DNA of 64,000 nt from a bacterium (GTDB lineage: Bacteria; Actinomycetota; Acidimicrobiia; Acidimicrobiales; CATQHL01). The DNA lies in contig JAPPDX010000107.1 of assembly GCA_028824415.1 (NCBI GenBank), positions 522 to 64,521 of the forward strand. The letters are read 5' to 3'. The position numbers were made by a program, and so were the translations under genes. Shown here piece by piece: positions 11,371 to 54,841 of this stretch. Position 1 is the stretch's first letter. The number at the start of each line of letters is the position of its first letter. The notes beneath the pieces were generated by a model, which saw nothing but the letters and a program-made list of their open reading frames with translations, ran no database searches and had not been told where the DNA came from.

Positions 11371-12618
11371 GTGAGTTCCCCGTCATCATCCTCATCACCT
11401 CGGTCGTCACCCGATCCGTCTGCCTCATTTCTAGCGGTCTCGCGGGCGGTGGCGGCGATCACCCCGTCGGCCACCGTCGCCACCGACGCCAAGGCCAAGG
11501 CGCTGCGTGCCGCCGGGGAGCCGGTCATCGGCTTCGGGGCCGGAGAGCCCGACTTCCCGACGCCTCCGCACATCGTCGAGGCTGCGGTGCAGGCCTGCCA
11601 GGACCAGCGAAACCATCGTTACAGCCCCGCACCGGGGCTGCCCGAGTTGCGCGAGGCGGTCGCCGCCAAGACACTGCGGGACTCCGGCCTCGAAGTGTCG
11701 CCGCAGCAGGTGATCATCACCGCCGGCGGTAAGCACGCCGTCTACAACGGCCTGCTGACGCTGTTGGATCCCGGCGACGAGGTGATCCTTCCCGCCCCCT
11801 ACTGGACCACCTATCCCGAGCCGGTGACGATGGTCGGGGCGCGGCCGGTGGTCGTGCAGACCCACGTGGACAGCGGCTATCGCGTCACGGTCGAGCAGTT
11901 GGAGGCGGCGCGGACACCCCGCACGAAGCTGCTCATCTTCGTGTCGCCGTCGAACCCCACCGGGAGCGTGTATCCGCCCGACGAGATCGAGGCGATCGGC
12001 AACTGGGCGGCCGAACACGGCATCTGGGTCCTGACCGACGAGATCTACGAACACCTCACCTACGACGATCACCGGCACGCCTCGCTTCCGGTCGTGGCTC
12101 CGGCGGCGGCGGAGCGCTGTGTGGTGATCAACGGGGTCGCCAAGACCTACGCCATGACCGGTTGGCGTGTCGGCTGGATCATCGCGCCCCAGCAGGTGGC
12201 CTCCGCGGCGGCCGCCCTGCAGTCCCACCAGACCTCCAACGTGTCGAACGTTTCCCAGCGTGCGGCGCTGGCTGCTGTCTCGGGGCCGCTCGGTGCCGTG
12301 GTGGAGATGCGCTTGCAGTTCGACCGCCGTCGCCGCACCATGCACGGGATGCTCTCGCAGATCCCGGGGATCAACTGCCCGCTGCCCCAGGGCGCGTTCT
12401 ATGCGTTCCCGTCGCTGGAGCGGGTGTTGGAGCGACCGATCGCCGGGCGCAGGCTGGAGTCCAGCCTCGAGCTGGCCGATCTGCTGCTGTCGGAAGCGAA
12501 CGTGGCCGTGGTGGCGGGCGAGGCGTTCGGCGCGCCCGGATGCGTCCGTCTCTCCTTCGCCCTCGCCGACGACGACCTGGCGGAGGGCGTCGGCCGCATC
12601 GTGGACTTCCTGTCCTAG
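11371..12618 (+). CDS. Pyridoxal-phosphate aminotransferase, class I (aspartate aminotransferase-like)
   Basis: [62 protein letters not shown]. The start is uncertain: GTG 11371 is chosen, and ATG 11311 would overlap the divergent serC start. Confidence 0.85.
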
Positions 12619-12636
12619 CGGGCGGGGAGCGGGGTC

Positions 12637-14634
12637 GTGGCGGGAACGGGGGGCACGAGTCGCGCCGCGCCCTACGGGGCCTGGCCGTCGCCGCTCAGTC
12701 CTGCCTCCCTGGCCGCGGGGAGTGTGCGCATCACCACGCTGGTGGCCGACGGGGCCGACCTGTGGTGGTCCGAGACGCGGCCCGCGGCCAAGGGGCGGAC
12801 CGTGCTGATGCGCCGCAGCGCCGATGGGTCGGTGCGGGAGATCACCCCGCCGGAGGCCAACGTGCGCAGCCGCGTGCACTCCTACGGCGGTGCCGCCTGG
12901 TGGGCGGAGAACGGTGTCTGCGTGTACTCCGACGACGCCGACTTCCGGCTGCGCCGCCTCGGTCCCGGCGATGGCCGGCCCGTGGTGCTCACGCCCGACG
13001 GCCTCGAGCGGTCGAGCCTGTATGCCGATGGCCGCTTCAGTGGCGACGGTCGGTGGTTCGTGTGCGTGCGAGAGCGTCCCGCCACGCCGGAGCACATCAA
13101 CGAGCTCGTCTGCGTGGCACTGGACGGCAGCGGCCGGGTGGAGGTGATCGCCGCCGGCGCCGACTTCTATTCCGACCCCCGACCCTCGCCGTGCGGTCGC
13201 CGGCTGGCCTGGTTGCAGTGGAACCACCCGAACATGCCCTGGGACGGCTGCGAGTTGCACGTCGGGGGCCTGGACGGTCCCCGGGTGACCGAGTCGCAGC
13301 GCATCGCCGGTGGCGCCGAGGAGTGGATCTTCGGTCCTGCCTGGCGCCACGACGGGGCGCTGAGCTGGGTGAGCGACGGCTCGGGCTGGTCGACGCTGTG
13401 GCTGCTGGAGGGCGATCCGCTGGCGCCGGAGGCCACTCCCCGAAGCTGGGTCGACCTGCCCGATGGCGAGATCCAGACCGCTCCCTGGATCTTCGGCATG
13501 AGCCGCTACGCCACCTGGCCGGCCCCGGGCGATGGCAGGGGCTTGGCGTATGCGATCGCCCGTCGCGGTGGCCACGAGTTGTGCTTCACCGCTGAGCCGG
13601 CGAGCTCCTCGGATGGTCCGCTGTCGACCTACCGAGCCCACACCTCCTTCAGCGCCCTTCGGGCCTGGAAGTCCGGCGTGGTCGCCGTGGCCGCGTCGCC
13701 GTCGGTCGAGAACGAGATCCTGCATGTCGCACACGCGGGTACAAGGCCGGAGGCCCAGGTTGTATACGTCCCGCCGGCGCTGAGCCTGGATCCCGGATTC
13801 ACTCCCGAGCCCGAGCCGGTGACGTTCCCCACCACCGACGGTGCGGTGGCGCACGCCCTCCTCTACCGCCCGGCCAACCCGGCGTGCCGCCTCCCCGATG
13901 GGGCCGGGCCGCCGCCGCTGCTGGTGATGGCCCACGGCGGCCCCACCGGCGCGGCCCGCACCGCGCTGCACCTCGGGCTGCGCTACTGGACCAGCCGGGG
14001 CATCGCCGTGGTGGACGTGGACTATCGCGGCAGCACCGGTTACGGCCGGGCGTACCGCCGGGCTCTGGACGGTGGCTGGGGTGTCACGGACGTGGCCGAC
14101 TGCGTGGCTGCGGCACGCCACCTGGCCGGCTGCGGCGAGGCCGACGGCGATCGCCTGGCGATCATCGGCGCCAGCGCCGGCGGCTACGCGGTGCTGCAGG
14201 CGCTCGTCGACTACGACGTGTTTGCCGCGGGGCTCATCCGCTACGGGGTCACCGACCTGGAGGCGCTGGCCCGCGACACCCACAAGTTCGAGAAGCACTA
14301 CATGGACCGTCTCGTCGGCCCCTACCCGCAGGAGAAGGACCTCTACGTCGAGCGCTCGCCGATCCACCGGGTGGACCGCATCTCGTGTCCCATGCTGGTC
14401 CTGCAGGGCGACAGCGACCCGGTGGTGCCGCCGGAGCAGGCCGAGGCCCTGGTTGCGGCGCTGGAAGCCAACGGGTTGCCCTATGCCTACCTGCTCTTCG
14501 AGGGCGAGCAGCACGGCTTCCGGGGCACCGAGGCAATCGTGGCGGCCGCGGCGGCCGAGCTCTCGTTCCTCGGCCAGATCTTCGGCTTCGACCCGGCGGG
14601 CGGTATCACGCCGGTCATGGTGCGCAATCTCTGA
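12637..14634 (+). CDS. S9-family serine peptidase (prolyl oligopeptidase/acylaminoacyl-peptidase-like)
   Basis: N-terminal propeller-like region, then an alpha/beta hydrolase with IGASAGGY (nucleophile Ser), LVLQGDSDPVVP and FEGEQHGF. Confidence 0.85.
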   Translation: MAGTGGTSRAAPYGAWPSPLSPASLAAGSVRITTLVADGADLWWSETRPAAKGRTVLMRRSADGSVREITPPEANVRSRVHSYGGAAWWAENGVCVYSDDADFRLRRLGPGDGRPVVLTPDGLERSSLYADGRFSGDGRWFVCVRERPATPEHINELVCVALDGSGRVEVIAAGADFYSDPRPSPCGRRLAWLQWNHPNMPWDGCELHVGGLDGPRVTESQRIAGGAEEWIFGPAWRHDGALSWVSDGSGWSTLWLLEGDPLAPEATPRSWVDLPDGEIQTAPWIFGMSRYATWPAPGDGRGLAYAIARRGGHELCFTAEPASSSDGPLSTYRAHTSFSALRAWKSGVVAVAASPSVENEILHVAHAGTRPEAQVVYVPPALSLDPGFTPEPEPVTFPTTDGAVAHALLYRPANPACRLPDGAGPPPLLVMAHGGPTGAARTALHLGLRYWTSRGIAVVDVDYRGSTGYGRAYRRALDGGWGVTDVADCVAAARHLAGCGEADGDRLAIIGASAGGYAVLQALVDYDVFAAGLIRYGVTDLEALARDTHKFEKHYMDRLVGPYPQEKDLYVERSPIHRVDRISCPMLVLQGDSDPVVPPEQAEALVAALEANGLPYAYLLFEGEQHGFRGTEAIVAAAAAELSFLGQIFGFDPAGGITPVMVRNL

Positions 14635-14644
14635 GCCGGCGCGG

Positions 14645-14694
14645 ATCGGGGATTCCGGCCGCCGATGCGGCGGATGCACCGGAGAATCCCCGAT
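14645..14694 (+). terminator. Extended GC-rich stem-loop after the peptidase gene (no U-tract)
   Basis: ATCGGGGATTCCGG ... CCGGAGAATCCCCGAT arms with a 2-nt bulge enclose a second hairpin, CCGCCG-atg-CGGCGG. It starts 11 nt after the stop. Confidence 0.4.
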
Positions 14695-14837
14695 GGGTAG
14701 GAACGAACCCGAGACCCGCGCGGCGGAGTTGGGCGTGTGACAGGATTGACAGGGGTTCAATCCTCGCGGGAGGGCGCGATATCCGGCTCCGAGCGCGAAC
14801 GGCACGAACGATCCGGTGCAGAGGTACAGCGGTGAGC

Positions 14838-15896
14838 ATGAGACCGAACCTGCAGTCGTTTGCAGCGGCTCTGATCGCGCTGCTGCTCGTAGCCGCCGCG
14901 TGTGGCGACTCCGGCGGAGAGGACCTCGACGAGGGCGCCGTCAACGCCCTGGTGGAGTGCATGTCGGCGGCGCAGGCGGGCGTCACTTCCTCGCTGACGG
15001 AGATGTACGCCACGATGTCGATGTCGTTCCCCGGCGACGAACCGTACGCGGCGTATAACGACGTGCCCTTCGGGGTTGCGACCAAGGTGGGCGATCTCGT
15101 GCGTATCGAAGTGGACAGGGCGGCCGGGGCGGACGCAGCCGGCGAGGACGGCGATTCCGGGCCGGCGGACTACCCGCTGCTGATGGTGATCGAGGACGAC
15201 ACGCGCGTTTACTTCAATCTGGGTACATTCGAGGACCACGGCATGCCGGCCGATAGCCCGTGGCTGGCCGGCCTCGATGCGGAGACTCTCCACGACGGCG
15301 GGGATCTGTGGGGACTCGTGGACCTCGCCGAGGTGGATAACGCACCGGCGTATAGTTGGGTCCACTTCGCCCTACACGCGATTCCCGGCACAGATCCCCT
15401 GGGCGAGGACGTCAGTCGGCTTCTCGCTCTGGCGCTTGCCGACGGAGCCCTGCTTGAGGCCTGGAGCGGGGAGCGAACCCAGGTGATGGGCGTCGATACC
15501 ACGCCGTATTCCTTCGTCATCGACCTCGTGGCGTTGAGCGAGATACCCGAACTCGTCAAGAGCCAGGGCGGAGACCTGTGGGGGTTCGCGGCTTCCCTCA
15601 GCGGTTCCCCCGGTCCGTTGCCCATCCGGTACACCGTCCACCTGGACGACGATGACGTCGACCGGCGCACCGTTGTCGAGATGGACATGGGCGCGATCAC
15701 GATCGCTGCCTACGCGGCGGTCGACGACCCCGACCTGATGCTGTCCGAGGAAGAGATGCGCGAGCTCGCCCAGATCGAGTTCCACTACGCCGTCCGGCTC
15801 GACACACACTCCGTCGACGATCCTGCCCTCTCGGTGACATTGCCTGATCCGTCGCGGGTCATCGACCTCCTGCCGATACCCCTTTTCGAGTTCTAG
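14838..15896 (+). CDS. Lipoprotein, paralog 1 of a three-member family of unknown function
   Basis: ATG 14838 (MRPNLQSFAAALIALLLVAAAC|GD). Shares LDEGAVNALV..AAQAGVTSS, GGDLWGLVDL, TTPYSFVIDLVALSEIPE and DPALSVTLPDPSRVIDL with the next two genes. Confidence 0.7.
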   Translation: MRPNLQSFAAALIALLLVAAACGDSGGEDLDEGAVNALVECMSAAQAGVTSSLTEMYATMSMSFPGDEPYAAYNDVPFGVATKVGDLVRIEVDRAAGADAAGEDGDSGPADYPLLMVIEDDTRVYFNLGTFEDHGMPADSPWLAGLDAETLHDGGDLWGLVDLAEVDNAPAYSWVHFALHAIPGTDPLGEDVSRLLALALADGALLEAWSGERTQVMGVDTTPYSFVIDLVALSEIPELVKSQGGDLWGFAASLSGSPGPLPIRYTVHLDDDDVDRRTVVEMDMGAITIAAYAAVDDPDLMLSEEEMRELAQIEFHYAVRLDTHSVDDPALSVTLPDPSRVIDLLPIPLFEF

Positions 15897-19015: not shown

Positions 19016-19093
19016 CGGGAGGCCTCGCCCTAGTGTGCGCCCGGGACAAGGCATCCCGACTCAATGCAGGCGGCACATAGTGAGGTGAGCCCT

Positions 19094-20695
19094 ATGGCAC
19101 GGGTTCTTGTCGCAGAACGCATCTCATCGGCGGGCCTCGATTTGCTCCGCGACGGGGGCCACGAGGTGGACGTGCGCCTCGGTATGAGTCCCGAGGAGCT
19201 TCTCGGAGCCGTGGCCGGCGCGCGGGCGCTGGTCATCCGCTCAGCCACACAGGTCACCGCCGATGTGTTGGAGGCCGGCAAGGATCTCGTCGTGGTGGGC
19301 CGCGCCGGCGTCGGTCTCGACAATGTCGACCTCGACGCCGCCACCCGCCTCGGCGTGACGGTGGTTAACGCACCGCTGTCGAACGTGTTGTCGGCGGCCG
19401 AGCACACCGTCGCGCTGATCCTGTCGCAGGCCCGCAACATCCCCCAGGCGCACGCCGCGTTGGTAGCGGGGCGCTGGGAGCGGGCGCAGTGGGAGGGCAT
19501 CGAACTGGCGGGCAAGACCCTCGGCATCGTCGGGCTCGGCCGGGTCGGCCGCCTCGTGGCCGAGCGCGTGGCCGGATTCGCCATGCTCACGCTGGGGCAC
19601 GATCCCTACGTGTCGGTCGAGCAGGCCCGTGAGTTGCGTATCGAACTGGTGAGTCTCCCCGAGCTGATGGCTCGCAGCGACTTCGTGACGCTGCACGTCG
19701 CCAGGACGCCCGAGACGATCGGCCTCATCGGGGCGGATCTCCTGGCGGAGGCCAAGCCCGGCATCCGGATCGTGAACGTCGCCCGCGGCGGACTCGTGGA
19801 CGAGGAGGCGCTGGCAGGGGCCCTGCGGTCAGGCCGGGTGGCAGGTGCCGCGCTGGACGTCTTCGACGGCGAGCCAATCGATTCGTCGCCGCTGTTCGGA
19901 CTTCCCGGAGTGGTGGTCACGCCACACCTGGGGGCGAGCACGGCAGAGGCCCAGCACCGGGCCGGGGTGAACATCGCCGAGCAGGTGCGAGATGCTTTGG
20001 CAGGTGGGTTCGTGCCGTTCGCCGTCAACATCGAGGCGCGTCAGGCGCCCGACATTCTGCGGCCCTACCTGCCGCTCTGCGAGCACATGGGCGGGATGCT
20101 GGCCGAGATCGTCGGCGGGCTGCCCGAGGCGGTGGAGTTGGAGTTCTGGGGTCACATCGGTGATCACGACCCCTCCATCGCACGTCTGGCCGTGCTTCGG
20201 GGCCTCCTGGCCACGGCTCGCCGGACCAACGTCACTTACGTGAACGCTCCCTTGATGGCCGCCGAGTCAGGTCTGCGAACCGTCACTCACAGCCACGTGG
20301 CCCCTCGCGACTTCCTCAACGAGGTGGTCGTGCGGGGCGGGGGGACCGAGTTGGTCGGCACGCTGCTGGGGGTGCGCGGCGATCCGTACGTCGTCAAGGT
20401 CAACGGCCTGGCGATCAACGTGCGCCCGTCGCGACACATGGTCATGATCACCAACGAGGACCGGCCCGGCGTCGTCGGGGTGGTCGGGACGATTCTCGGC
20501 GCCGCCGGCGTCAACATCGCGGACATGGTGCTGGACCGCACGGGCGGTGCCAGCTCCACCTCGCTGATCATGTTCTCGACGGACCGCCACGTCACCGAGG
20601 CCGTGGCGCAGCAATTGCGTGAGGCGCCCGGCGTCCTGACGGTGACGGTGATCCGCCTCGACACGATCGGTCAGGCAGGAGCGTCGGCACGCTGA
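19094..20695 (+). CDS. serA: D-3-phosphoglycerate dehydrogenase (long form with ASB + ACT domains)
   Basis: Start at ATG 19094 (MARVLVAERIS). NAD motif GIVGLGRVGRLVA, catalytic HLGAST, and a C-terminal ACT-like HMVMITNEDRPGVVGVVGTILG. Confidence 0.9.
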   Translation: MARVLVAERISSAGLDLLRDGGHEVDVRLGMSPEELLGAVAGARALVIRSATQVTADVLEAGKDLVVVGRAGVGLDNVDLDAATRLGVTVVNAPLSNVLSAAEHTVALILSQARNIPQAHAALVAGRWERAQWEGIELAGKTLGIVGLGRVGRLVAERVAGFAMLTLGHDPYVSVEQARELRIELVSLPELMARSDFVTLHVARTPETIGLIGADLLAEAKPGIRIVNVARGGLVDEEALAGALRSGRVAGAALDVFDGEPIDSSPLFGLPGVVVTPHLGASTAEAQHRAGVNIAEQVRDALAGGFVPFAVNIEARQAPDILRPYLPLCEHMGGMLAEIVGGLPEAVELEFWGHIGDHDPSIARLAVLRGLLATARRTNVTYVNAPLMAAESGLRTVTHSHVAPRDFLNEVVVRGGGTELVGTLLGVRGDPYVVKVNGLAINVRPSRHMVMITNEDRPGVVGVVGTILGAAGVNIADMVLDRTGGASSTSLIMFSTDRHVTEAVAQQLREAPGVLTVTVIRLDTIGQAGASAR

Positions 20696-21196: not shown

Positions 21197-22780
<1,584 letters not shown>

Positions 22781-22926: not shown

Positions 22927-24528
22927 CTAGGAGTGCTCGTCGCGCAGCCGGCGCTTGAGGATCTTGCCCTGGGTGTCCTTGGGCAGCGCGCCGATGATGT
23001 GGACCGCCTTGGGGACCTTGTAGCCCGCCAGTGAGGCGCGGCAGTGATCGATGATCTCGGAAGGTTCGGGCGATCGTCCGGCCTTGGGGACGACGAAGGC
23101 AGTCACGGCCTCGGACCAGTAGTCGTCGGGCAGTCCCACCACGGCGACCTCCATGAGCGCATCGTGGCCGTAGAGGGCCCGTTCCACCTCGACCGACGAC
23201 ACGTTCATGCCGCCGGTCTTGATCATGTCCTTCTTGCGGTCGACAAAGAAGAGGTTGCCGTCGGCGTCGATGCGGACGATGTCCTCGGTGTGCAGCCAGC
23301 CGTCGCGGAACGTCTCGGCGGTGCGCTCGGCGTCATCGAGGTAGCCGATCATCACCGACGGTGAGCGGCAGATCAGCTCGCCCACCTCGGCGTCGACGCC
23401 GTCGTCGTCCACGACGCGGATCTCCAACTGGGGGACAGGTTTGCCGATCCAGGAGGCGTCACCGCCGGGAATGTCCCCCAGTGACGAGAACCACCCGACC
23501 GTTCCCAACTGGCTCAACTCCGACTGGCCCCAGTAGGTCCCCCACGTAATCCCGGGCGAGGCCTCCTGCCAAGCGGTGATCATGTGGGAGGGGACGGTGC
23601 CTCCGTAGGTGATGCAACGCTGCAGCGCCGTCAGGTCGGCGTCACCGAACCCGGGCTGGGTCGTCATCGCAAGGAAGAACGTGGGTGTTTGCGCCATGTA
23701 GGTGACCTTCTCCGCGGCGATGATCCGTATCGCCGCGCCCGGGTCGACGGTGTGGGCCAGAACGATCTTGGCGCCGCAGTTGATGATCGAAGTCATGCTG
23801 CCGAGGCCGGCGATCGTGAAGAAGGGCATCACGAAGAGCCACACGACCCCCGGACCGAGATCGAGTGCGAGCGTCCAGGCCGGCGTTGTCGAGATCAGAT
23901 AGTTGCGGTGCGAGATCAGGACGCCTTTCGGGAACGCCGTCGTGCCGCTCGTGTAGACGAGCATGGCGACGTCGTCCTCCTGCACATCGCAGTCCGGTTC
24001 GGCGCCGTCGCCCTCCGAGACCAGCGACGAGAAGGCCAGCCAACCCGCCGGCGGCTCGGCAGCGTCGGCGCTGCTGTGCACGAGGTGCTCGACGCCTTGG
24101 AGCGCACCCGCCTCTCTGGTTGCTTCGATCCTGTCGCAAAAGACGTCCTCGGCCATCAGGATGCGGGGCCGGGCATGGTTCACCTGGTAGCTGATCTCCG
24201 TCGCGGTGAAGGTGAAGTTCAGTCCTGTGAGCGCCGCGCCCAGCTTCAGGGTGGCGAACCAGATGGTCATGTAGTCGACGCTGTTGCGGGACATCACGGC
24301 GACGACGTCACCTCGCCGGACACCCAGGGCCGCCAGCGAGTTGGCCACCCGGTTCACCCGGACATTGAGGTCGTCGTAGGTCATGACCGACCGTGAGCCG
24401 TCCGGGCCGTAGTAGACGATCGCCTCCCTGTCGGGGTTGTGTTGCGCGTGACGTCGCAGCTGATCGCCGATTGTCGCTCGTCCCAGCATTCGGTGGCGAG
24501 CGGTCGCGCCAACGGTGAGATCGGTCAT
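22927..24528 (-). CDS. Acyl-CoA synthetase / AMP-dependent ligase
   Basis: AMP-binding motif LVYTSGTTAFPKGV; also TGGMNVSSVEVE and GKILKRRLR. Start at ATG 24528 (MTDLTVG) preceded by GGTGGAG. Confidence 0.85.
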   Translation of the reverse strand: MTDLTVGATARHRMLGRATIGDQLRRHAQHNPDREAIVYYGPDGSRSVMTYDDLNVRVNRVANSLAALGVRRGDVVAVMSRNSVDYMTIWFATLKLGAALTGLNFTFTATEISYQVNHARPRILMAEDVFCDRIEATREAGALQGVEHLVHSSADAAEPPAGWLAFSSLVSEGDGAEPDCDVQEDDVAMLVYTSGTTAFPKGVLISHRNYLISTTPAWTLALDLGPGVVWLFVMPFFTIAGLGSMTSIINCGAKIVLAHTVDPGAAIRIIAAEKVTYMAQTPTFFLAMTTQPGFGDADLTALQRCITYGGTVPSHMITAWQEASPGITWGTYWGQSELSQLGTVGWFSSLGDIPGGDASWIGKPVPQLEIRVVDDDGVDAEVGELICRSPSVMIGYLDDAERTAETFRDGWLHTEDIVRIDADGNLFFVDRKKDMIKTGGMNVSSVEVERALYGHDALMEVAVVGLPDDYWSEAVTAFVVPKAGRSPEPSEIIDHCRASLAGYKVPKAVHIIGALPKDTQGKILKRRLRDEHS

Positions 24529-24539
24529 TGCTCCACCCT

Positions 24540-24965
24540 TCATCCGTCCTCGGTCGGCGGCGTCGCGGCGGGTCCAGCGGAGGCGGGTGGGCTGGGGCCG
24601 CGCGTCAGCCGTCTCGCCGCGGCGACGATCTCTTCGAGCTTCGAGCCCGGGGGGAAGACCTCGACGCCCCGGGCCTCGAGCCGGCGCCGCACCCATGGCG
24701 GCACCACGCCGCCGGCGAAGACGGGCACGCCGGGCGCAGCAACGGTCAGATCGTCAAGGATGCGCTCGACCACCTCGACCCGACCGCCCACGTTCAGGCC
24801 GACAAGGTCCGCGTCCTCGTCGACGGTCGCCGAAACGATGTCTTCGCCGCGGGCCATCCCGAGCATGATCACCTCGAACCCTGCGTCACGCAAGGCCCGC
24901 GAGACCAGCAGAGTGCCGCGCCAGTGACCGTCGAGGCCGGTCTTGGCGATGATGATTCTGCTCAC
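24540..24965 (-). CDS. Acyl-CoA mutase small subunit (B12-binding domain)
   Basis: IIIAKTGLDGHWRGTLLVSRALRDAGFEV contains the DxHxxG base-off/His-on motif. GTG 24965 overlaps the large-subunit stop (GTGA). This is only the last 141 codons of ORF 24540..26423. Confidence 0.85.
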   Translation of the reverse strand: MSRIIIAKTGLDGHWRGTLLVSRALRDAGFEVIMLGMARGEDIVSATVDEDADLVGLNVGGRVEVVERILDDLTVAAPGVPVFAGGVVPPWVRRRLEARGVEVFPPGSKLEEIVAAARRLTRGPSPPASAGPAATPPTEDG

Positions 24966-26578
24966 GGCCGGATCGGCGGTTCCCAGTCGCCCCAGACCTC
25001 GCGGAACACGCCGCCGATCTCGCCCAGCGTGACGTCGGCGTCCACGGCCTGCATTACCGGGCCCATGACGTTGCCGTCGGACCGGCAGACCCGCTCCAGT
25101 TCGTGCAGCGCGCGGCGCGCGGCGACACCGTCGCGGGAGGATCGCACCTCGGCGAGGCGCCCCATGGCTTGATCCCAGGCGTCGGTCGTGCCCTGGAAGC
25201 CGTCGATCTCGAAGGGGGTCTCGTCGATCTGGTGGCAGTTGACACCGACGATCAGCCGGTCGTCGTTCTCGACCTCGTCCCACTGCTCGGACTGACGCCG
25301 CGCCGCGCGCCTGTGCAACCAGCCCGAGTCGAGGGCCTCGATGAACCCTCCCTGTCCTTCGATCTCGGCGAAGGACTCCCAGGCGCGGGCCTCCAGTTCC
25401 GACGTGAGGGCCTCCAGGTAGTAGGAGCCGCCGAGCGGGTCCGCGACCGCGTCGATGCCGGTCTCGTGCTGCAGGATCTGCTGGATTCGCACCGACATCT
25501 GGTGGGCGTGTTCGGAGGGGATCGACAGGGCCTCGTCGTAGCAGGCCACTCCCAGGGATTGGACGCCCCCCAGGACCGAGGCCAGCGCCATGATCGTCCC
25601 GCGGGCGATGTTGTTGAGCGGCTGCTGGTAGGTGAGCGCCGATCCGGCCGTGACGACGTGGATGCGGAGTTGGCGGGCCTTCTCGTCCCCGATGCCGTAG
25701 CGCTGCTCGAGGAGGTCGGACCACATCTTGCGTGCCGCGCGCAGCTTGGCGATGTCCTCGAAGAAGTCCATGCCGACACGGAAGTTGACTCCTCCCACCT
25801 TGTGGGAGAGCTCCTCGGGCCTGTAGCGGCCCCGGTCTGCGAGAGCGTCGAGGTACTCCACGGCGGTGGCGAACACGGTCGCCAACTCGTCCGGCGCGGA
25901 GAGCCCGCTGTCGGCACCGTTGTACCCGGCGATGGACACCGGTACCCAGCGGGGAAGGTTCTCCAGGCAGAACTCGGTGATGTCGTTGTTGAGGCGGAGA
26001 CCGGCCCGCGGGGGGATCTGCTGCTTGGTGATGCAGCCCACGTAGGTCAGGAAGAAGTCGCTCTGACCGGTACCCGCCAGCTGTCGCAGGTCGATGCCAC
26101 GACGCTTCGCCACGGTCCAGTAGCAGGCCAGGGCGAACGGGGCGTGCTGCACGACCGCTCCGCCCGGGTGGGTGTAGATCTCTTCGATCGGGATGCCCTC
26201 GAGGATCGTCTCGTAGTCGCGCACGCCGATGATGACCGCCCCTGTCAGCCCGACGTCCTCGCGGCGCGCCACCACTTCGGGATGGTCCACGTCGTAGAGG
26301 TGATCCGCGGTGTTGCGGTCGTGCTCCATGATGATGCCGCCCTCGCCCTGCCGGAGCAGGAACAGGAGGCGCTCGCGTTCGTCGGCAGGGTTGCCGAAGC
26401 CGCTGAGTTGGAAGATGCGCCACGGCTTCGTGCGGTACATCCCCTCGTAGGCACCGCGTACGAACGGGGCGCGTCCCGGGCCGGCCTCCAGCGCACCATG
26501 AACGGACTTGGGCACGTCGTCGGGCCCGTAGCAGCCCTTGATGGGGATACCCGAGGCGGTGAGGCGATCGTCGGTCAC
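24962..26578 (-). CDS. Methylmalonyl-CoA-mutase-family large subunit, divergent (substrate unknown)
   Basis: FVRGAYEGMYRTKPWRIFQLSGFG, GTGQSD, VSIAGYNGADSG and NIARGTIMALASVLGG align by eye to the MCM TIM-barrel. Substrate-contact positions differ (see findings). Confidence 0.85.
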   Translation of the reverse strand: MTDDRLTASGIPIKGCYGPDDVPKSVHGALEAGPGRAPFVRGAYEGMYRTKPWRIFQLSGFGNPADERERLLFLLRQGEGGIIMEHDRNTADHLYDVDHPEVVARREDVGLTGAVIIGVRDYETILEGIPIEEIYTHPGGAVVQHAPFALACYWTVAKRRGIDLRQLAGTGQSDFFLTYVGCITKQQIPPRAGLRLNNDITEFCLENLPRWVPVSIAGYNGADSGLSAPDELATVFATAVEYLDALADRGRYRPEELSHKVGGVNFRVGMDFFEDIAKLRAARKMWSDLLEQRYGIGDEKARQLRIHVVTAGSALTYQQPLNNIARGTIMALASVLGGVQSLGVACYDEALSIPSEHAHQMSVRIQQILQHETGIDAVADPLGGSYYLEALTSELEARAWESFAEIEGQGGFIEALDSGWLHRRAARRQSEQWDEVENDDRLIVGVNCHQIDETPFEIDGFQGTTDAWDQAMGRLAEVRSSRDGVAARRALHELERVCRSDGNVMGPVMQAVDADVTLGEIGGVFREVWGDWEPPIRP

Positions 26579-26598: not shown

Positions 26599-27525
26599 TC
26601 AGGTGTTCGGCACCGCTATTTCACCGGACGGGAAGGCAACCACCGACCCGAAGTCACCCGGACCGATCATCGTGGGCGACGTGTTGGCCAGCATGAGCAG
26701 GCCTCCGGTGCGCTCGATGGCGAAGTCCTCAAGCCTCTCGCCGGTGGCGGGACAGTCCAGCCGTGCCACCCATCCTGCCTCGATCGGCTGCCCTACCTCG
26801 GCGGTCGGGTAGCGGGACGTCAATACGCCGACCTGCGACGGCATGTAGAGGCTCACGTCCCCGTCGATGAGCGGGACGGTGCGCGGCCCAGTCGACCTTC
26901 CATCCAGTTGACCTCGGTAGCGCAGCACGTTGAGGCAGCCTTCCACACCGACGCTCGGGTCGCCCAGAGCACCCCCACCAAACTCCACGAGAGCGGCGGT
27001 GCCCCCGGCGTCCGCGATCGCCTTGCAGAGTTGGCCGGGCTGGGCGAAGTTGCAGACCACGGGCGTGTAGCCGAAGGATGCCGTGAACTCGGGGTTCCCG
27101 TAGTCGTAGGAGTACCAGAGGGCCATCGTGGGCGTTCCCGAGTGCAGGTCCACCACGCAGTCGGTCAGATCGGTGAGTGTGCCGATGAGGGTAGCGGCGA
27201 CCTGGTTGGTCAGGAATCCCCCCGGCGCGCCGGGAAACACCCTGTTGAGGTAGAGGTGGTCGGGGCTGACCCGGGTGCCCACCTCGAGTGCCGGCGGGTT
27301 GGCGGCGGGACAGAGCACGACGGTGCCGGCGAGATCCTCCGATGCCTCGATCCGCCGGAGCAGGCCCCAGAGGGCCATGACGCCAAGCGGCTTGTCGCCG
27401 AAGATCCCCGACACGAAGGCCGTCGTCGGCCCCGGGCGCGAGCCTTTGACCTCGATGAAGCGGAGGTGCCAGGGCTGACCGTCAGCTCGGCGGCCGACTT
27501 CCACAGTCCAGGTGCGAACGCTCAT
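26599..27525 (-). CDS. Succinylglutamate desuccinylase/aspartoacylase (AstE/AspA)-family protein, atypical
   Basis: Start at ATG 27525 (MSVRTWTVEV) overlaps the upstream stop (ATGA). Family-like TAFVSGIFGDKPLG and CVVDLHSGT. The usual HGxE reads FGDK here. Confidence 0.7.
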   Translation of the reverse strand: MSVRTWTVEVGRRADGQPWHLRFIEVKGSRPGPTTAFVSGIFGDKPLGVMALWGLLRRIEASEDLAGTVVLCPAANPPALEVGTRVSPDHLYLNRVFPGAPGGFLTNQVAATLIGTLTDLTDCVVDLHSGTPTMALWYSYDYGNPEFTASFGYTPVVCNFAQPGQLCKAIADAGGTAALVEFGGGALGDPSVGVEGCLNVLRYRGQLDGRSTGPRTVPLIDGDVSLYMPSQVGVLTSRYPTAEVGQPIEAGWVARLDCPATGERLEDFAIERTGGLLMLANTSPTMIGPGDFGSVVAFPSGEIAVPNT

Positions 27526-28547
27526 CGCCCGCTCTGCAGCCGCGGGATCACCGAGTCGCCGATGGCCCCGATGGCATCGAGGGTGGCCTCGAGCGACGGT
27601 CCCTGGAAGTGGCGCAGGCGCAGCAGCATCTCCTCGGGGTTGAGAGTGTCCTGCCACTCCTGCAACTGCTCCAGCCACGTCTCGGTCGATCCGCACAGCA
27701 CGCGGTCGGGCAGCACGTGGCCGAGTTGCAGATCGGCGGCGCTTCCCACCTCGGCCAGCCACGGATCGAAACGCTCGTCGTAGGCGTTGCCGCGCTCGAA
27801 GTACACCCGGGAGTAGCCCAGCACATGGGGGCCGTACGTGGCGCGGGCCGCCTCGTCGGTCTCGTCCAGCCAGGCCTCCCGGAAGAGCACGATCCGCGGC
27901 TCCTTGCCGGCGGCGGCGCACTCGGCGCGGTAGACGTCGGCGAGGTGGCTGACCCAGCGCCCGCTGCGTATGGGATCGGTGATCCATCCGTCGGCCATGC
28001 GTGCGGCGCGGCGCACGCCGGGCACGCTCCAGGCCCCGATGAAAACCTCCAGATTGTCCGGACCGAGTGCGGGATCCCTGCGGGGCACAGTGCCCTGCCA
28101 GGGTTCGGGGACTTCGATGAGGCGGCCCGACCGGAAGGCCTCGATGACCTCCATCCCCACGTCCATTCGCCGCTTCCGCTCGTCGAGCCCCACACCGAAC
28201 GGTTCGAAATCACCGCTGAAGTAGCCGACTCCGGTGGTGAGGCGGAAGCGCCCCGGGTACAGGGCATCCAGCACGGAGGCGTCCTCGGCCACCGTCACCG
28301 GATGGTGAACGGGCAGGACGGTGACGCAGGTGCCGAACATCATCCGGTTCGTCGCGGCGAGCCCGCGTGCGCAGAGCAGCATCGGGCTGGTCGTGTAGGT
28401 GGTGTCGCCGGAGTGTTTCTCGCCCGTGTAGGCGCCGTACCAGCCGGCGGTCTCCGCGGTGCGGCACTCGCTCAGGAATCCGTCGATATCGAGGCGGCGT
28501 TCGCCGCCTTCGAGCTTCTGGACGGCGGGGGCGATGCTGAACCTCAT
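27522..28547 (-). CDS. Luciferase-like (LLM-class) flavin-dependent oxidoreductase
   Basis: Start at ATG 28547 (MRFSIAPAVQ). Also GWYGAYTGEKHS, FGTCVTVLPVHHPVTVAEDASVLDALYPGRFRLTTGVGY. Confidence 0.8.
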   Translation of the reverse strand: MRFSIAPAVQKLEGGERRLDIDGFLSECRTAETAGWYGAYTGEKHSGDTTYTTSPMLLCARGLAATNRMMFGTCVTVLPVHHPVTVAEDASVLDALYPGRFRLTTGVGYFSGDFEPFGVGLDERKRRMDVGMEVIEAFRSGRLIEVPEPWQGTVPRRDPALGPDNLEVFIGAWSVPGVRRAARMADGWITDPIRSGRWVSHLADVYRAECAAAGKEPRIVLFREAWLDETDEAARATYGPHVLGYSRVYFERGNAYDERFDPWLAEVGSAADLQLGHVLPDRVLCGSTETWLEQLQEWQDTLNPEEMLLRLRHFQGPSLEATLDAIGAIGDSVIPRLQSGR

Positions 28548-28573: not shown

Positions 28574-29281
28574 TCAGACGGTCCAGTTCGTGGCGTTGAG
28601 CAGCGTGGCGCTTAGCGAGGCGATGTTGTAGGTGAGGTTCGAGACGTCCGAGCCGAGCGCCTCGCGGTAGCGGTCGGCGACGGCATCGGGTGCACCGTCT
28701 TCGATCGCCTCGTCCACGGTCGCCCACTCGGTGAGGACGATCCAGTCCGGCTGGGACGACGGGAAGAGCGGGTGCTTGCCGTTCTGGCGCCCGACGCGTC
28801 CGGCGATGAACCCGGGGCGGTCGGTCTGGCGCAACCCCTCCGAAGCGCGGTACCAGGACAGGAACCGGTCCTCGGCGACTCCGGCTACGTCGAGGCGCAG
28901 CGTGGACACGACCGGCGAGGTGACCGCCCCGCGCCGCGACGGGCGGTCACCGGGGGAGAGGGCGGCCTCGGGAACACCGACGGTCTGTACCTGCGCATAG
29001 GTCGTGTTCGAGTGGTTGCTGATCTTGTGAAGCACTTCGTTCACCAATTGCGTGTCCCTGCGGCGCACGTCGACGTACGGCTCGGAGGAGAAGATCTGCA
29101 GGTCGGGAACCTCGTAGACGTTGCAGATGAGCGGTCCGCCGACGACGGAGTGGTAGGCGTTGCAGCTGTGGAATCCGGTGTCAATGAGGTCCGGGCCGTG
29201 ACGCGTGTCGTACCACTTGACGAACTCGCCGAGGTAGTCGTCCTCGACGTCCATCCGTACGACATAGAGCAGGGGAAGCAC
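28574..29281 (-). CDS. Hypothetical protein with internal duplication (two ABM/Dabb-like ferredoxin-fold halves, tentative)
   Basis: YVVRMDVEDDYLGEFVKWYDTRHGPDLIDTGF resembles STLRLDVAGVAEDRFLSWYRASEGLRQTDRPGF. It is the first gene of the minus-strand operon. Confidence 0.5.
   Translation of the reverse strand: MLPLLYVVRMDVEDDYLGEFVKWYDTRHGPDLIDTGFHSCNAYHSVVGGPLICNVYEVPDLQIFSSEPYVDVRRRDTQLVNEVLHKISNHSNTTYAQVQTVGVPEAALSPGDRPSRRGAVTSPVVSTLRLDVAGVAEDRFLSWYRASEGLRQTDRPGFIAGRVGRQNGKHPLFPSSQPDWIVLTEWATVDEAIEDGAPDAVADRYREALGSDVSNLTYNIASLSATLLNATNWTV

Positions 29282-54767: not shown

Positions 54768-54841
<74 letters not shown>

Follow-up and report, generated by a model that had tools for sequence, protein, structure and literature searches.

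A conserved branch of the acyl-CoA mutase superfamily with a remodelled predicted substrate pocket, found almost only in uncultured bacteria

The 64,000-nucleotide stretch of DNA analysed here (hereafter the window; positions 522 to 64,521 of contig JAPPDX010000107.1, assembly GCA_028824415.1, from a bacterium of the order Acidimicrobiales) carries an array of six minus-strand genes with small gaps or overlaps between them and a divergent ABC-transporter gene at its boundary. The array encodes, in order, an ABM-like protein, a luciferase-like (LLM) oxidoreductase, an AstE-like protein, the large and the small subunit of a putative acyl-CoA mutase, and an acyl-CoA ligase. We were concerned with the large subunit, encoded at 24962-26578, which a first-pass annotation, aligned by hand to the Propionibacterium MutB sequence of methylmalonyl-CoA mutase (MCM), had described as lacking the residues that specify the substrate in the known mutases. 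The results described below indicate that the replacement of pocket residues extends well beyond those first named, that it marks a conserved family of mutases, and that the enzyme probably acts on a substrate unlike those of the studied classes.

The large-subunit gene (24962..26578, minus strand) begins with GTG, has the Shine-Dalgarno-like motif GAGGGA 5' of its start, and encodes a protein of 538 amino acids. PF01642 (MM_CoA_mutase) matched the protein end to end, residues 7-530 aligning with profile positions 2-512 of 512 (2.4e-140, 468.9 bits), and TIGR00641, which describes the acyl-CoA mutase N-terminal domain, scored 392.7 bits, above its cut-off of 303.8. The equivalog profiles for MCM (NF006944) and IcmF reached 348 and 119.8 bits, far under their cut-offs of 876 and 1500, respectively, and TIGR00642 (MutA) gave a partial match only. 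No B12 domain is present within this open reading frame (ORF); it is carried by the separate small-subunit ORF. The closest solved structure by HMMER was that of 2-hydroxyisobutyryl-CoA mutase (HCM; 4R3U, 5e-86), and a Foldseek search with the AlphaFold2 (AF2) model (pLDDT 81, pTM 0.86) placed HCM first, with a TM score of 0.87 to 4r3u_A, and MCMs next. Judged from these matches, the product is the complete large subunit of an acyl-CoA mutase, the substrate-binding TIM-barrel subunit, and a member of the superfamily.

The GTG start codon of the small-subunit gene (24540..24965, minus strand; 141 amino acids) overlaps the stop codon of the large-subunit gene (GTGA), and the translated product matched TIGR00640, the mutase C-terminal B12-binding domain, at 83.7 bits (cut-off 57.45). 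It bears DGHWRG, which corresponds to DxHxxG, then GLNVGG where SxL is expected, and GG. DGHWRG and GG were invariant in 63 of the 63 small subunits examined from the family of related mutases, in which a conserved G[LI]NVGG takes the place of SxL; DGHWRG and GG are thus canonical and the third motif element is not. The source genome encodes two MeaB proteins outside the operon and a CobA/CobO-type adenosyltransferase; a PduO-type adenosyltransferase was not found in this metagenome-assembled genome (MAG), and Rfam detected no cobalamin riboswitch in the window, where its sole match was one tRNA (54768-54841, plus strand). The same genome encodes a canonical MutB/MutA pair on contig C125 (MutB signature Y/R/H) and an isobutyryl-CoA mutase (ICM)-type enzyme, the large subunit of which (F/Q/H) is split over two contig ends (C112:50597-51655 and C77:15-248), with a MeaB-type GTPase (C77:853-1608) encoded after it, indicating that adenosylcobalamin (AdoCbl) enzymes are in use. 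Alongside these two, the 24962-26578 mutase is a third mutase paralogue in its genome and not the housekeeping enzyme.

In MCM, Tyr89 and Arg207 bind the carboxylate of methylmalonyl-CoA and His244 is the general acid; ICM has Phe/Gln at the first two positions, and HCM has Ile/Gln together with an Asp. The four strings quoted in the first-pass annotation (PWRIFQLSGF, IMEHDRNTADHLYDVDH, GTGQSDFFLTYVGCITKQQIPP and IAGYNGADSG) are all in the translation of 24962-26578, and the hand alignment, with Leu, Cys and Asn at the specificity positions, was reproduced by HMMER alignment to solved structures and by MAFFT L-INS-i with real MCM, ICM, HCM and pivalyl-CoA mutase (PCM) sequences. The yardsticks in the latter were the MutB and the ICM-type subunit of the source genome, HCM 4R3U, and Xaut_5021 (HCM) and Xaut_5043 (PCM) from the Xanthobacter autotrophicus Py2 plasmid CP000782. 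Tyr89 of MCM, Phe of ICM, Ile90 of HCM and Leu of PCM all aligned with Leu57, and the His present at position 244 in all four classes aligned with Asn220, as had been proposed. The further statement that the Arg207 region holds no Arg stood only in part: Arg207 of MCM, Gln of ICM and HCM, and Asn of PCM aligned with Cys182, but a Lys or Arg occurs three residues on, at position 185. Cys182 lies in a loop that is one residue longer than in the known enzymes, VAFDLPTH-RGYDSD aligning with IMEHDRNTADHLYDVDH across a one-residue insertion, and because of this longer loop the HMMER alignment to HCM put Thr184, not Cys182, at the Arg207 position. Position 185 was Lys or Arg in every listed variant of the family (K185 is at least 90% conserved), and a positively charged side chain here might still come within reach of an anionic group, so that an anionic substrate is possible. 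The conclusion that methylmalonyl-CoA is unlikely to be the substrate was upheld, the residue set being unlike that of MCM, ICM, HCM and PCM and, by its published residues, that of (R)-specific 2-hydroxyisobutyryl-CoA mutase (RCM).

The predicted remodelling of the pocket is much wider than the three residues to which attention had been drawn. All eight barrel-strand ends differed from those of MCM, ICM, HCM and PCM in the L-INS-i alignment. Expressed in MCM numbering, the first (WRIFQL) carries Thr85Arg, Arg87Phe and Tyr89Leu; the second (IMEHDRNT) Ser114Ile, Ala116Glu, Phe117His and Leu119Arg; the third (YTHPGGAVVQH) Ser164His and Thr166Gly with a two-residue insertion; the fourth (GTGQSDFFLTYVGC) Arg207Cys; and the fifth (AGYN) His244Asn. 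A one-residue insertion marks the sixth (KVGGVNFR), Gln330Val the seventh (HVVT), and His364Gly with Asn366Ala/Ser the eighth (LGVA). The conserved residues that would line the pocket are either polar (Glu85, His86, Arg88, Lys/Arg185 and Asn220) or small (Val309, Gly343 and Ala/Ser345).

More than 120 homologues (63-93% identity), each with a generic annotation only, were retrieved from 5.8 billion proteins. Across 56-120 homologues with identities of 60-95%, the divergent motifs either did not vary or were more than 90% conserved. E85, H86, D87, R88, C182, Y219, N220 and H307 are invariant in the family and K185 is nearly so; the core residues common to all classes, Gln197, Tyr243, His328 and Glu370 by signature column, are also kept throughout. 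Because of this conservation among the homologues, the pocket substitutions, as read from the aligned sequences, are not the outcome of chance or decay.

Members of the family are at least 59% identical, in contrast to 32-38% for the known classes. In a set of 1.84 billion representatives clustered at 50% identity, the family amounted to one full-length representative (62% identical) and fragments; sister lineages stood at 50% and 43% identity, and all other representatives at about 40% or less. The family clade received 100% support both in FastTree (154 rows) and in IQ-TREE under LG+C20 (55 rows), with stem lengths of 0.46 and 0.47, respectively, and MCM, ICM, HCM and PCM fell outside it in both trees. 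We located 75 family loci in species-representative genomes, nearly all of them MAGs. Many belong to Acidimicrobiia, several of these from sponge metagenomes or named Candidatus Spongiisocius, and the others to Gamma-, Alpha- and Betaproteobacteria, Chloroflexota, Thermoleophilia, Pseudonocardiaceae and Candidatus Microthrix; the window itself is 95% identical to an Acidimicrobiales MAG. Taken on sequence and phylogeny, the family is a distinct, conserved branch of the MCM/ICM/HCM/PCM superfamily that occurs almost only in uncultured bacteria. A full-text literature search did not find a description of the clade, although absence there is not proof of absence.

Only 17 of the 150 nearest 50%-identity superfamily representatives had the full MCM signature, and dozens of clades among the 150 had other residue sets at the positions of Tyr89, Arg207, His244, Gln330 and His364; for the neighbouring clades, cluster members gave generic names only. 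Leu at the Tyr89 position occurs also in PCM, and Asn at the His244 position in several neighbouring uncharacterised clades of the 50%-identity set. The presence of this Asn elsewhere, together with the many clades with non-canonical pockets, tempers the surprise of the residues seen here, and uncharacterised mutase specificities appear, from these alignments, to be numerous.

One could envisage that a protein so altered is a catalytically inactive or regulatory paralogue, as MutA is, or a B12-binding sensor or scaffold. Such a role is suggested by the Asn in place of the catalytic His244, the many changed channel residues, the partial match to TIGR00642 and the neighbouring AstE-like protein, which has itself lost metal ligands. 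Yet a B12 subunit of its own accompanies the mutase, and in it DxHxxG, a motif absent from MutA-type subunits, is invariant; the changed residues, too, are invariant across phyla, which points to selection on a specific pocket. Moreover, Glu370, Tyr243 and Gln197 are kept, a MeaB gene adjoins the mutase in five of the 75 family loci, and linkage to a ligase is near-universal. In view of the B12 motif, MeaB, the AdoCbl-using genome and the confident AF2 model, we regard an inactive, MutA-like role as very unlikely, and retain the reading that the two subunits form a functional mutase.

We compared gene context by ORF clustering over 76 loci and by tblastn with the window proteins. The small subunit accompanied the mutase in all 71 loci having enough flank. 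In the window, the gene for an AMP-forming acyl-CoA ligase (22927..24528, minus strand; 533 amino acids; PF00501 and PF13193) starts 11 nucleotides past the small-subunit gene, and an orthologue was present in 58 of 75 loci. In 53 of these it lies on the same strand and downstream, at a distance of up to 1 kb in 34 loci and of 1-5 kb in 19. The best relatives of the ligase in the PDB were FadD5, putative long-chain acyl-CoA ligases, and feruloyl- and anthranilate-CoA ligases; none of its best 60 PDB matches was a 2-hydroxyisobutyric acid (2-HIBA) ligase, and it does not resemble the ligases of the HCM and PCM clusters of Xanthobacter, which are annotated as PaaK-type. The other neighbours differ between lineages. 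The window-type gene set recurs in reshuffled form in Thermoleophilia and other Acidimicrobiia, sometimes with a cytochrome P450. A third type of context has the order short-chain dehydrogenase/reductase (SDR), M20 amidohydrolase, mutase large subunit, small subunit and ligase, with acyl-CoA dehydrogenase (ACAD) and enoyl-CoA hydratase (ECH) nearby, and a fourth has amidase, AstE-like protein, mutase large subunit, small subunit, ligase, glyoxalase-like protein, two LLM proteins, a second ligase and a SnoaL-like protein. In gammaproteobacterial loci the neighbours are nitrile hydratase alpha and beta, amidase and ECH (MAG JACREI010000020.1, locus L002, 12,344-19,380). What recurs in these contexts is the combination of an amide or nitrile hydrolase with CoA activation, the mutase and enzymes of the beta-oxidation type.

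The gene context also bears on whether the substrate is a CoA thioester at all. Four residues that every CoA-utilising yardstick conserves (Arg87, Ser114, Ser164 and Thr166) are replaced, and some members have no ligase, as might be expected if the protein were a B12 radical enzyme acting on some other kind of compound or catalysing chemistry other than a carbonyl 1,2-shift. This alternative is very unlikely in our estimation, given that most loci have a ligase gene within the same-strand array, that enzymes of CoA-ester beta-oxidation (ACAD, ECH, SDR and an SCPx-type thiolase with DUF35) recur nearby, and that the Tyr75/Met78 and Thr195/Gln197 regions are kept. We therefore continue with a CoA ester as the inferred substrate of the mutase.

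In 16 Acidimicrobiia genomes the gene set comprises mutase large subunit, small subunit, Xsc, omega-transaminase, ligase, LLM, DUF35 and SCPx-type thiolase, with Xsc (sulfoacetaldehyde acetyltransferase) assigned at equivalog level (TIGR03457, 795 bits against a cut-off of 676). This taurine-type Xsc/transaminase module lies on the same strand inside the mutase operon, between the small-subunit and ligase genes (loci L044-L058, L064, L081, L082 and L084; approximately 12,080-15,170 in each locus). We rejected these neighbours as proof of a sulfonate substrate, since no more than 16 of the 75 loci, all from one lineage, have them. A related proposal is that the mutase carries out a novel rearrangement on an amino- or sulfonate-bearing CoA ester, for example 2-aminoisobutyryl-CoA/3-aminobutyryl-CoA or a sulfonated succinyl-CoA analogue such as 3-sulfopropanoyl-CoA; the Glu85-His86-Asp87-Arg88 cluster together with Lys/Arg185 would bind the substituent, and the pathway would feed the omega-transaminase/Xsc module of the 16 genomes, many of which are sponge-associated. 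Taken with both its pocket part and its Xsc part, this proposal seems to us distinctly doubtful.

The reading that we favour, to which we assign a probability of roughly 0.7, is that 24962-26578 and 24540-24965 encode a functional two-subunit AdoCbl acyl-CoA mutase of a distinct clade, which would receive a ligase-made thioester and convert it by a 1,2-shift to a degradable skeleton. A free carboxylic acid, possibly released from an amide, would be converted to its CoA thioester by the downstream ligase; the mutase would then move the thioester carbonyl to the neighbouring carbon in a radical 1,2-shift, turning a skeleton on which beta-oxidation is blocked into a degradable one. Because the pocket matches that of no studied mutase, the enzyme probably rearranges an acid other than those of the studied mutases. 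What that acid might be is the weakest step of the proposal: the polar and small conserved pocket residues and the recurring amide hydrolases suggest a polar-substituted acid, derived from an amide and perhaps bulkier than those used by ICM and PCM.

Several observations weigh against this interpretation. AF2 confidence was lowest in three segments adjacent to the pocket (residues 41-60, 220-222 and 345-352). The residue that acts as general acid in MCM, His244, is Asn, and small polar channel residues of the yardsticks are replaced (Ser114Ile, Ser164His and Thr166Gly), for which reason it is from the linkage to the ligase that CoA binding is inferred. In the small subunit, NVG stands in place of the SxL of the B12 motif, and there is no MeaB gene in the mutase operon of the window. 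Gammaproteobacterial members have no adjacent ligase, no cultured isolate was among the hosts of the 75 loci, and none of 72,556 plasmids carried a family member, the best match being 38% identical.

The remaining genes of the array lie upstream of the mutase. The AstE/AspA (DoeB-like) family protein (26599..27528, minus strand; 309 amino acids; PF24827) is encoded by a gene that ends 20 nucleotides before the mutase start. It keeps DLHSG and has FGDK where 3na6 and 6twl have HGDE ('sgifGDkplG' against 'anhGDeyeG'), both the His and the Glu being replaced. In 19-20 related loci, too, the gene immediately precedes that of the mutase. Because the HGDE residues are lost and yet the position is held in these loci, the protein may be a non-hydrolytic partner rather than a deacylase. 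The start of its gene is overlapped by the stop of the gene for the LLM oxidoreductase (27522..28547, minus strand; PF00296, 6.5e-40), which has a likely ATG start at 28547 and is present in 18 related loci. The nearest NCBIfam of this possibly F420- or FMN-dependent protein was TIGR03619, under its cut-off. The first gene of the operon (28574..29281, minus strand; 235 amino acids) encodes a protein with no Pfam or NCBIfam match, predicted (AF2, pLDDT 80) to consist of two ferredoxin-like alpha+beta barrel (ABM-type) halves in tandem. Foldseek with this model retrieved the marine-metagenome protein 2pgc, the anthrone-oxidase-like 5f9p and the monooxygenase PenE as possible structural relatives. 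Homologues occur in 16-17 related loci, and they accompany the mutase in three synteny types. The operon is flanked by the housekeeping genes serA (19064-20695, plus strand; TIGR01327, 534 bits) and leuA (21197-22780, plus strand; NF002086, 720 bits).

To our knowledge, few acyl-CoA mutase specificities have been described, namely those of MCM, ethylmalonyl-CoA mutase (ECM), ICM/IcmF, HCM, RCM, PCM and some carboxylated variants. Each new specificity opened a catabolic or biotechnological route, such as 2-HIBA production, pivalate chemistry and an engineered lactyl-CoA mutase. The clade described here is sharply delimited and highly conserved. It is abundant in Acidimicrobiia that have not been cultured, many of which are symbionts of sponges, and occurs also in Proteobacteria and Chloroflexota. 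Its members always have their own B12 subunit and usually their own ligase, so that the ligase-mutase pair offers a direct experimental handle. In addition, the loss of His244, Gln330 and His364, which are kept by the four classes tested, bears on what a pocket needs for radical catalysis.

The 24962-26578 mutase shares the superfamily, the fold and the mode of B12 binding with MCM and ICM, and it is 32% identical to the MutB of its own genome and 38% identical to the partial ICM. We rejected its identification as an MCM because of Leu/Cys/Asn against Tyr/Arg/His, the NF006944 score (348 against 876 bits) and its place in the trees, and as ICM/IcmF because of Leu/Cys against the Phe/Gln of the genome's own ICM-type subunit and the IcmF score (119.8 against 1500 bits). 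Ethylmalonyl-, hexylmalonyl-, benzylmalonyl- and alkylsuccinyl-CoA mutases are expected to have the carboxylate-binding Tyr and Arg pair, which is absent here, the conserved Lys/Arg185 lying three residues past the Arg207 position.

HCM (HcmAB of Aquincola tertiaricarbonis, 4R3U; Xaut_5021/5018) resembles the 24962-26578 mutase in its split large and small subunits, in an acidic residue at the Asp117 position (Glu85), in an aliphatic residue at the Ile90 position (Leu57) and in the acid-CoA ligase of its cluster. At the HCM residues Arg87, Phe117, Met119, His244, Gln330 and His364 the protein here has Phe, His, Arg, Asn, Val and Gly, respectively, and Cys or Thr of the longer loop takes the place of Gln208; the two are 33% identical and fall in separate clades, and, unlike the HCM cluster, the window operon has no MeaH or GntR and has a FadD5/feruloyl-like ligase, not the PaaK type of Xanthobacter. 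Identity with HCM was rejected on the residues (Leu, Glu and Cys/Thr against Ile90, Asp117 and Gln208), the 33% identity, the ligase type and the missing MeaH. PCM (Xaut_5043/5044) is likewise split into two subunits, has Leu where MCM has Tyr89 and is clustered with a ligase, and its cluster has a TetR regulator, as do some family loci. It differs in having Asn at 207 and Gln-His at 243-244, in keeping Gln330 and His364, and in the segment from A116 to L119 (SLLPCC against IMEHDR), and in IQ-TREE it paired with another representative (P0160, 99%). With Leu alone in common, 32% identity and a separate clade, identity with PCM was also rejected.

RcmAB (Kyrpidia tusciae and Bacillus massiliosenegalensis) is another divergent mutase with separate subunits and a ligase in its gene cluster; it provides a precedent for a known reaction catalysed by a rebuilt pocket. 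Its first-shell residues are I95, V122, V172, H174, Y252 and F296 (PMC11599936 SI Fig. 6B), and we set RCM apart by these published residue numbers, not by an aligned sequence, Leu57 and Glu85 standing against Ile95 and Val122. One reaction being thus carried out by RCM and HCM with different first-shell residues, the family could have convergently rebuilt its pocket for a reaction already described, for example 2-hydroxyisobutyryl-CoA/3-hydroxybutyryl-CoA or pivalyl-CoA/isovaleryl-CoA. HCM as the closest solved structure, Glu85 at the position of HCM Asp117 and Leu57 as the PCM residue are consistent with this possibility, as is the mutase-ligase layout, which mirrors the hcm-hcl and PCM-ligase clusters, and the gammaproteobacterial nitrile hydratase and amidase could supply alpha-substituted acids such as 2-HIBA. 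We nevertheless consider it unlikely. The family is only 32-33% identical to HCM and PCM and apart from both in the trees, and its ligase is of the FadD5/feruloyl type rather than the PaaK type of the Xanthobacter clusters. At least ten conserved pocket positions differ; Arg87, Gln330 and His364, common to the four classes, are lost together with His244, and of these shared residues only Tyr243, which is Gln in PCM, is kept.

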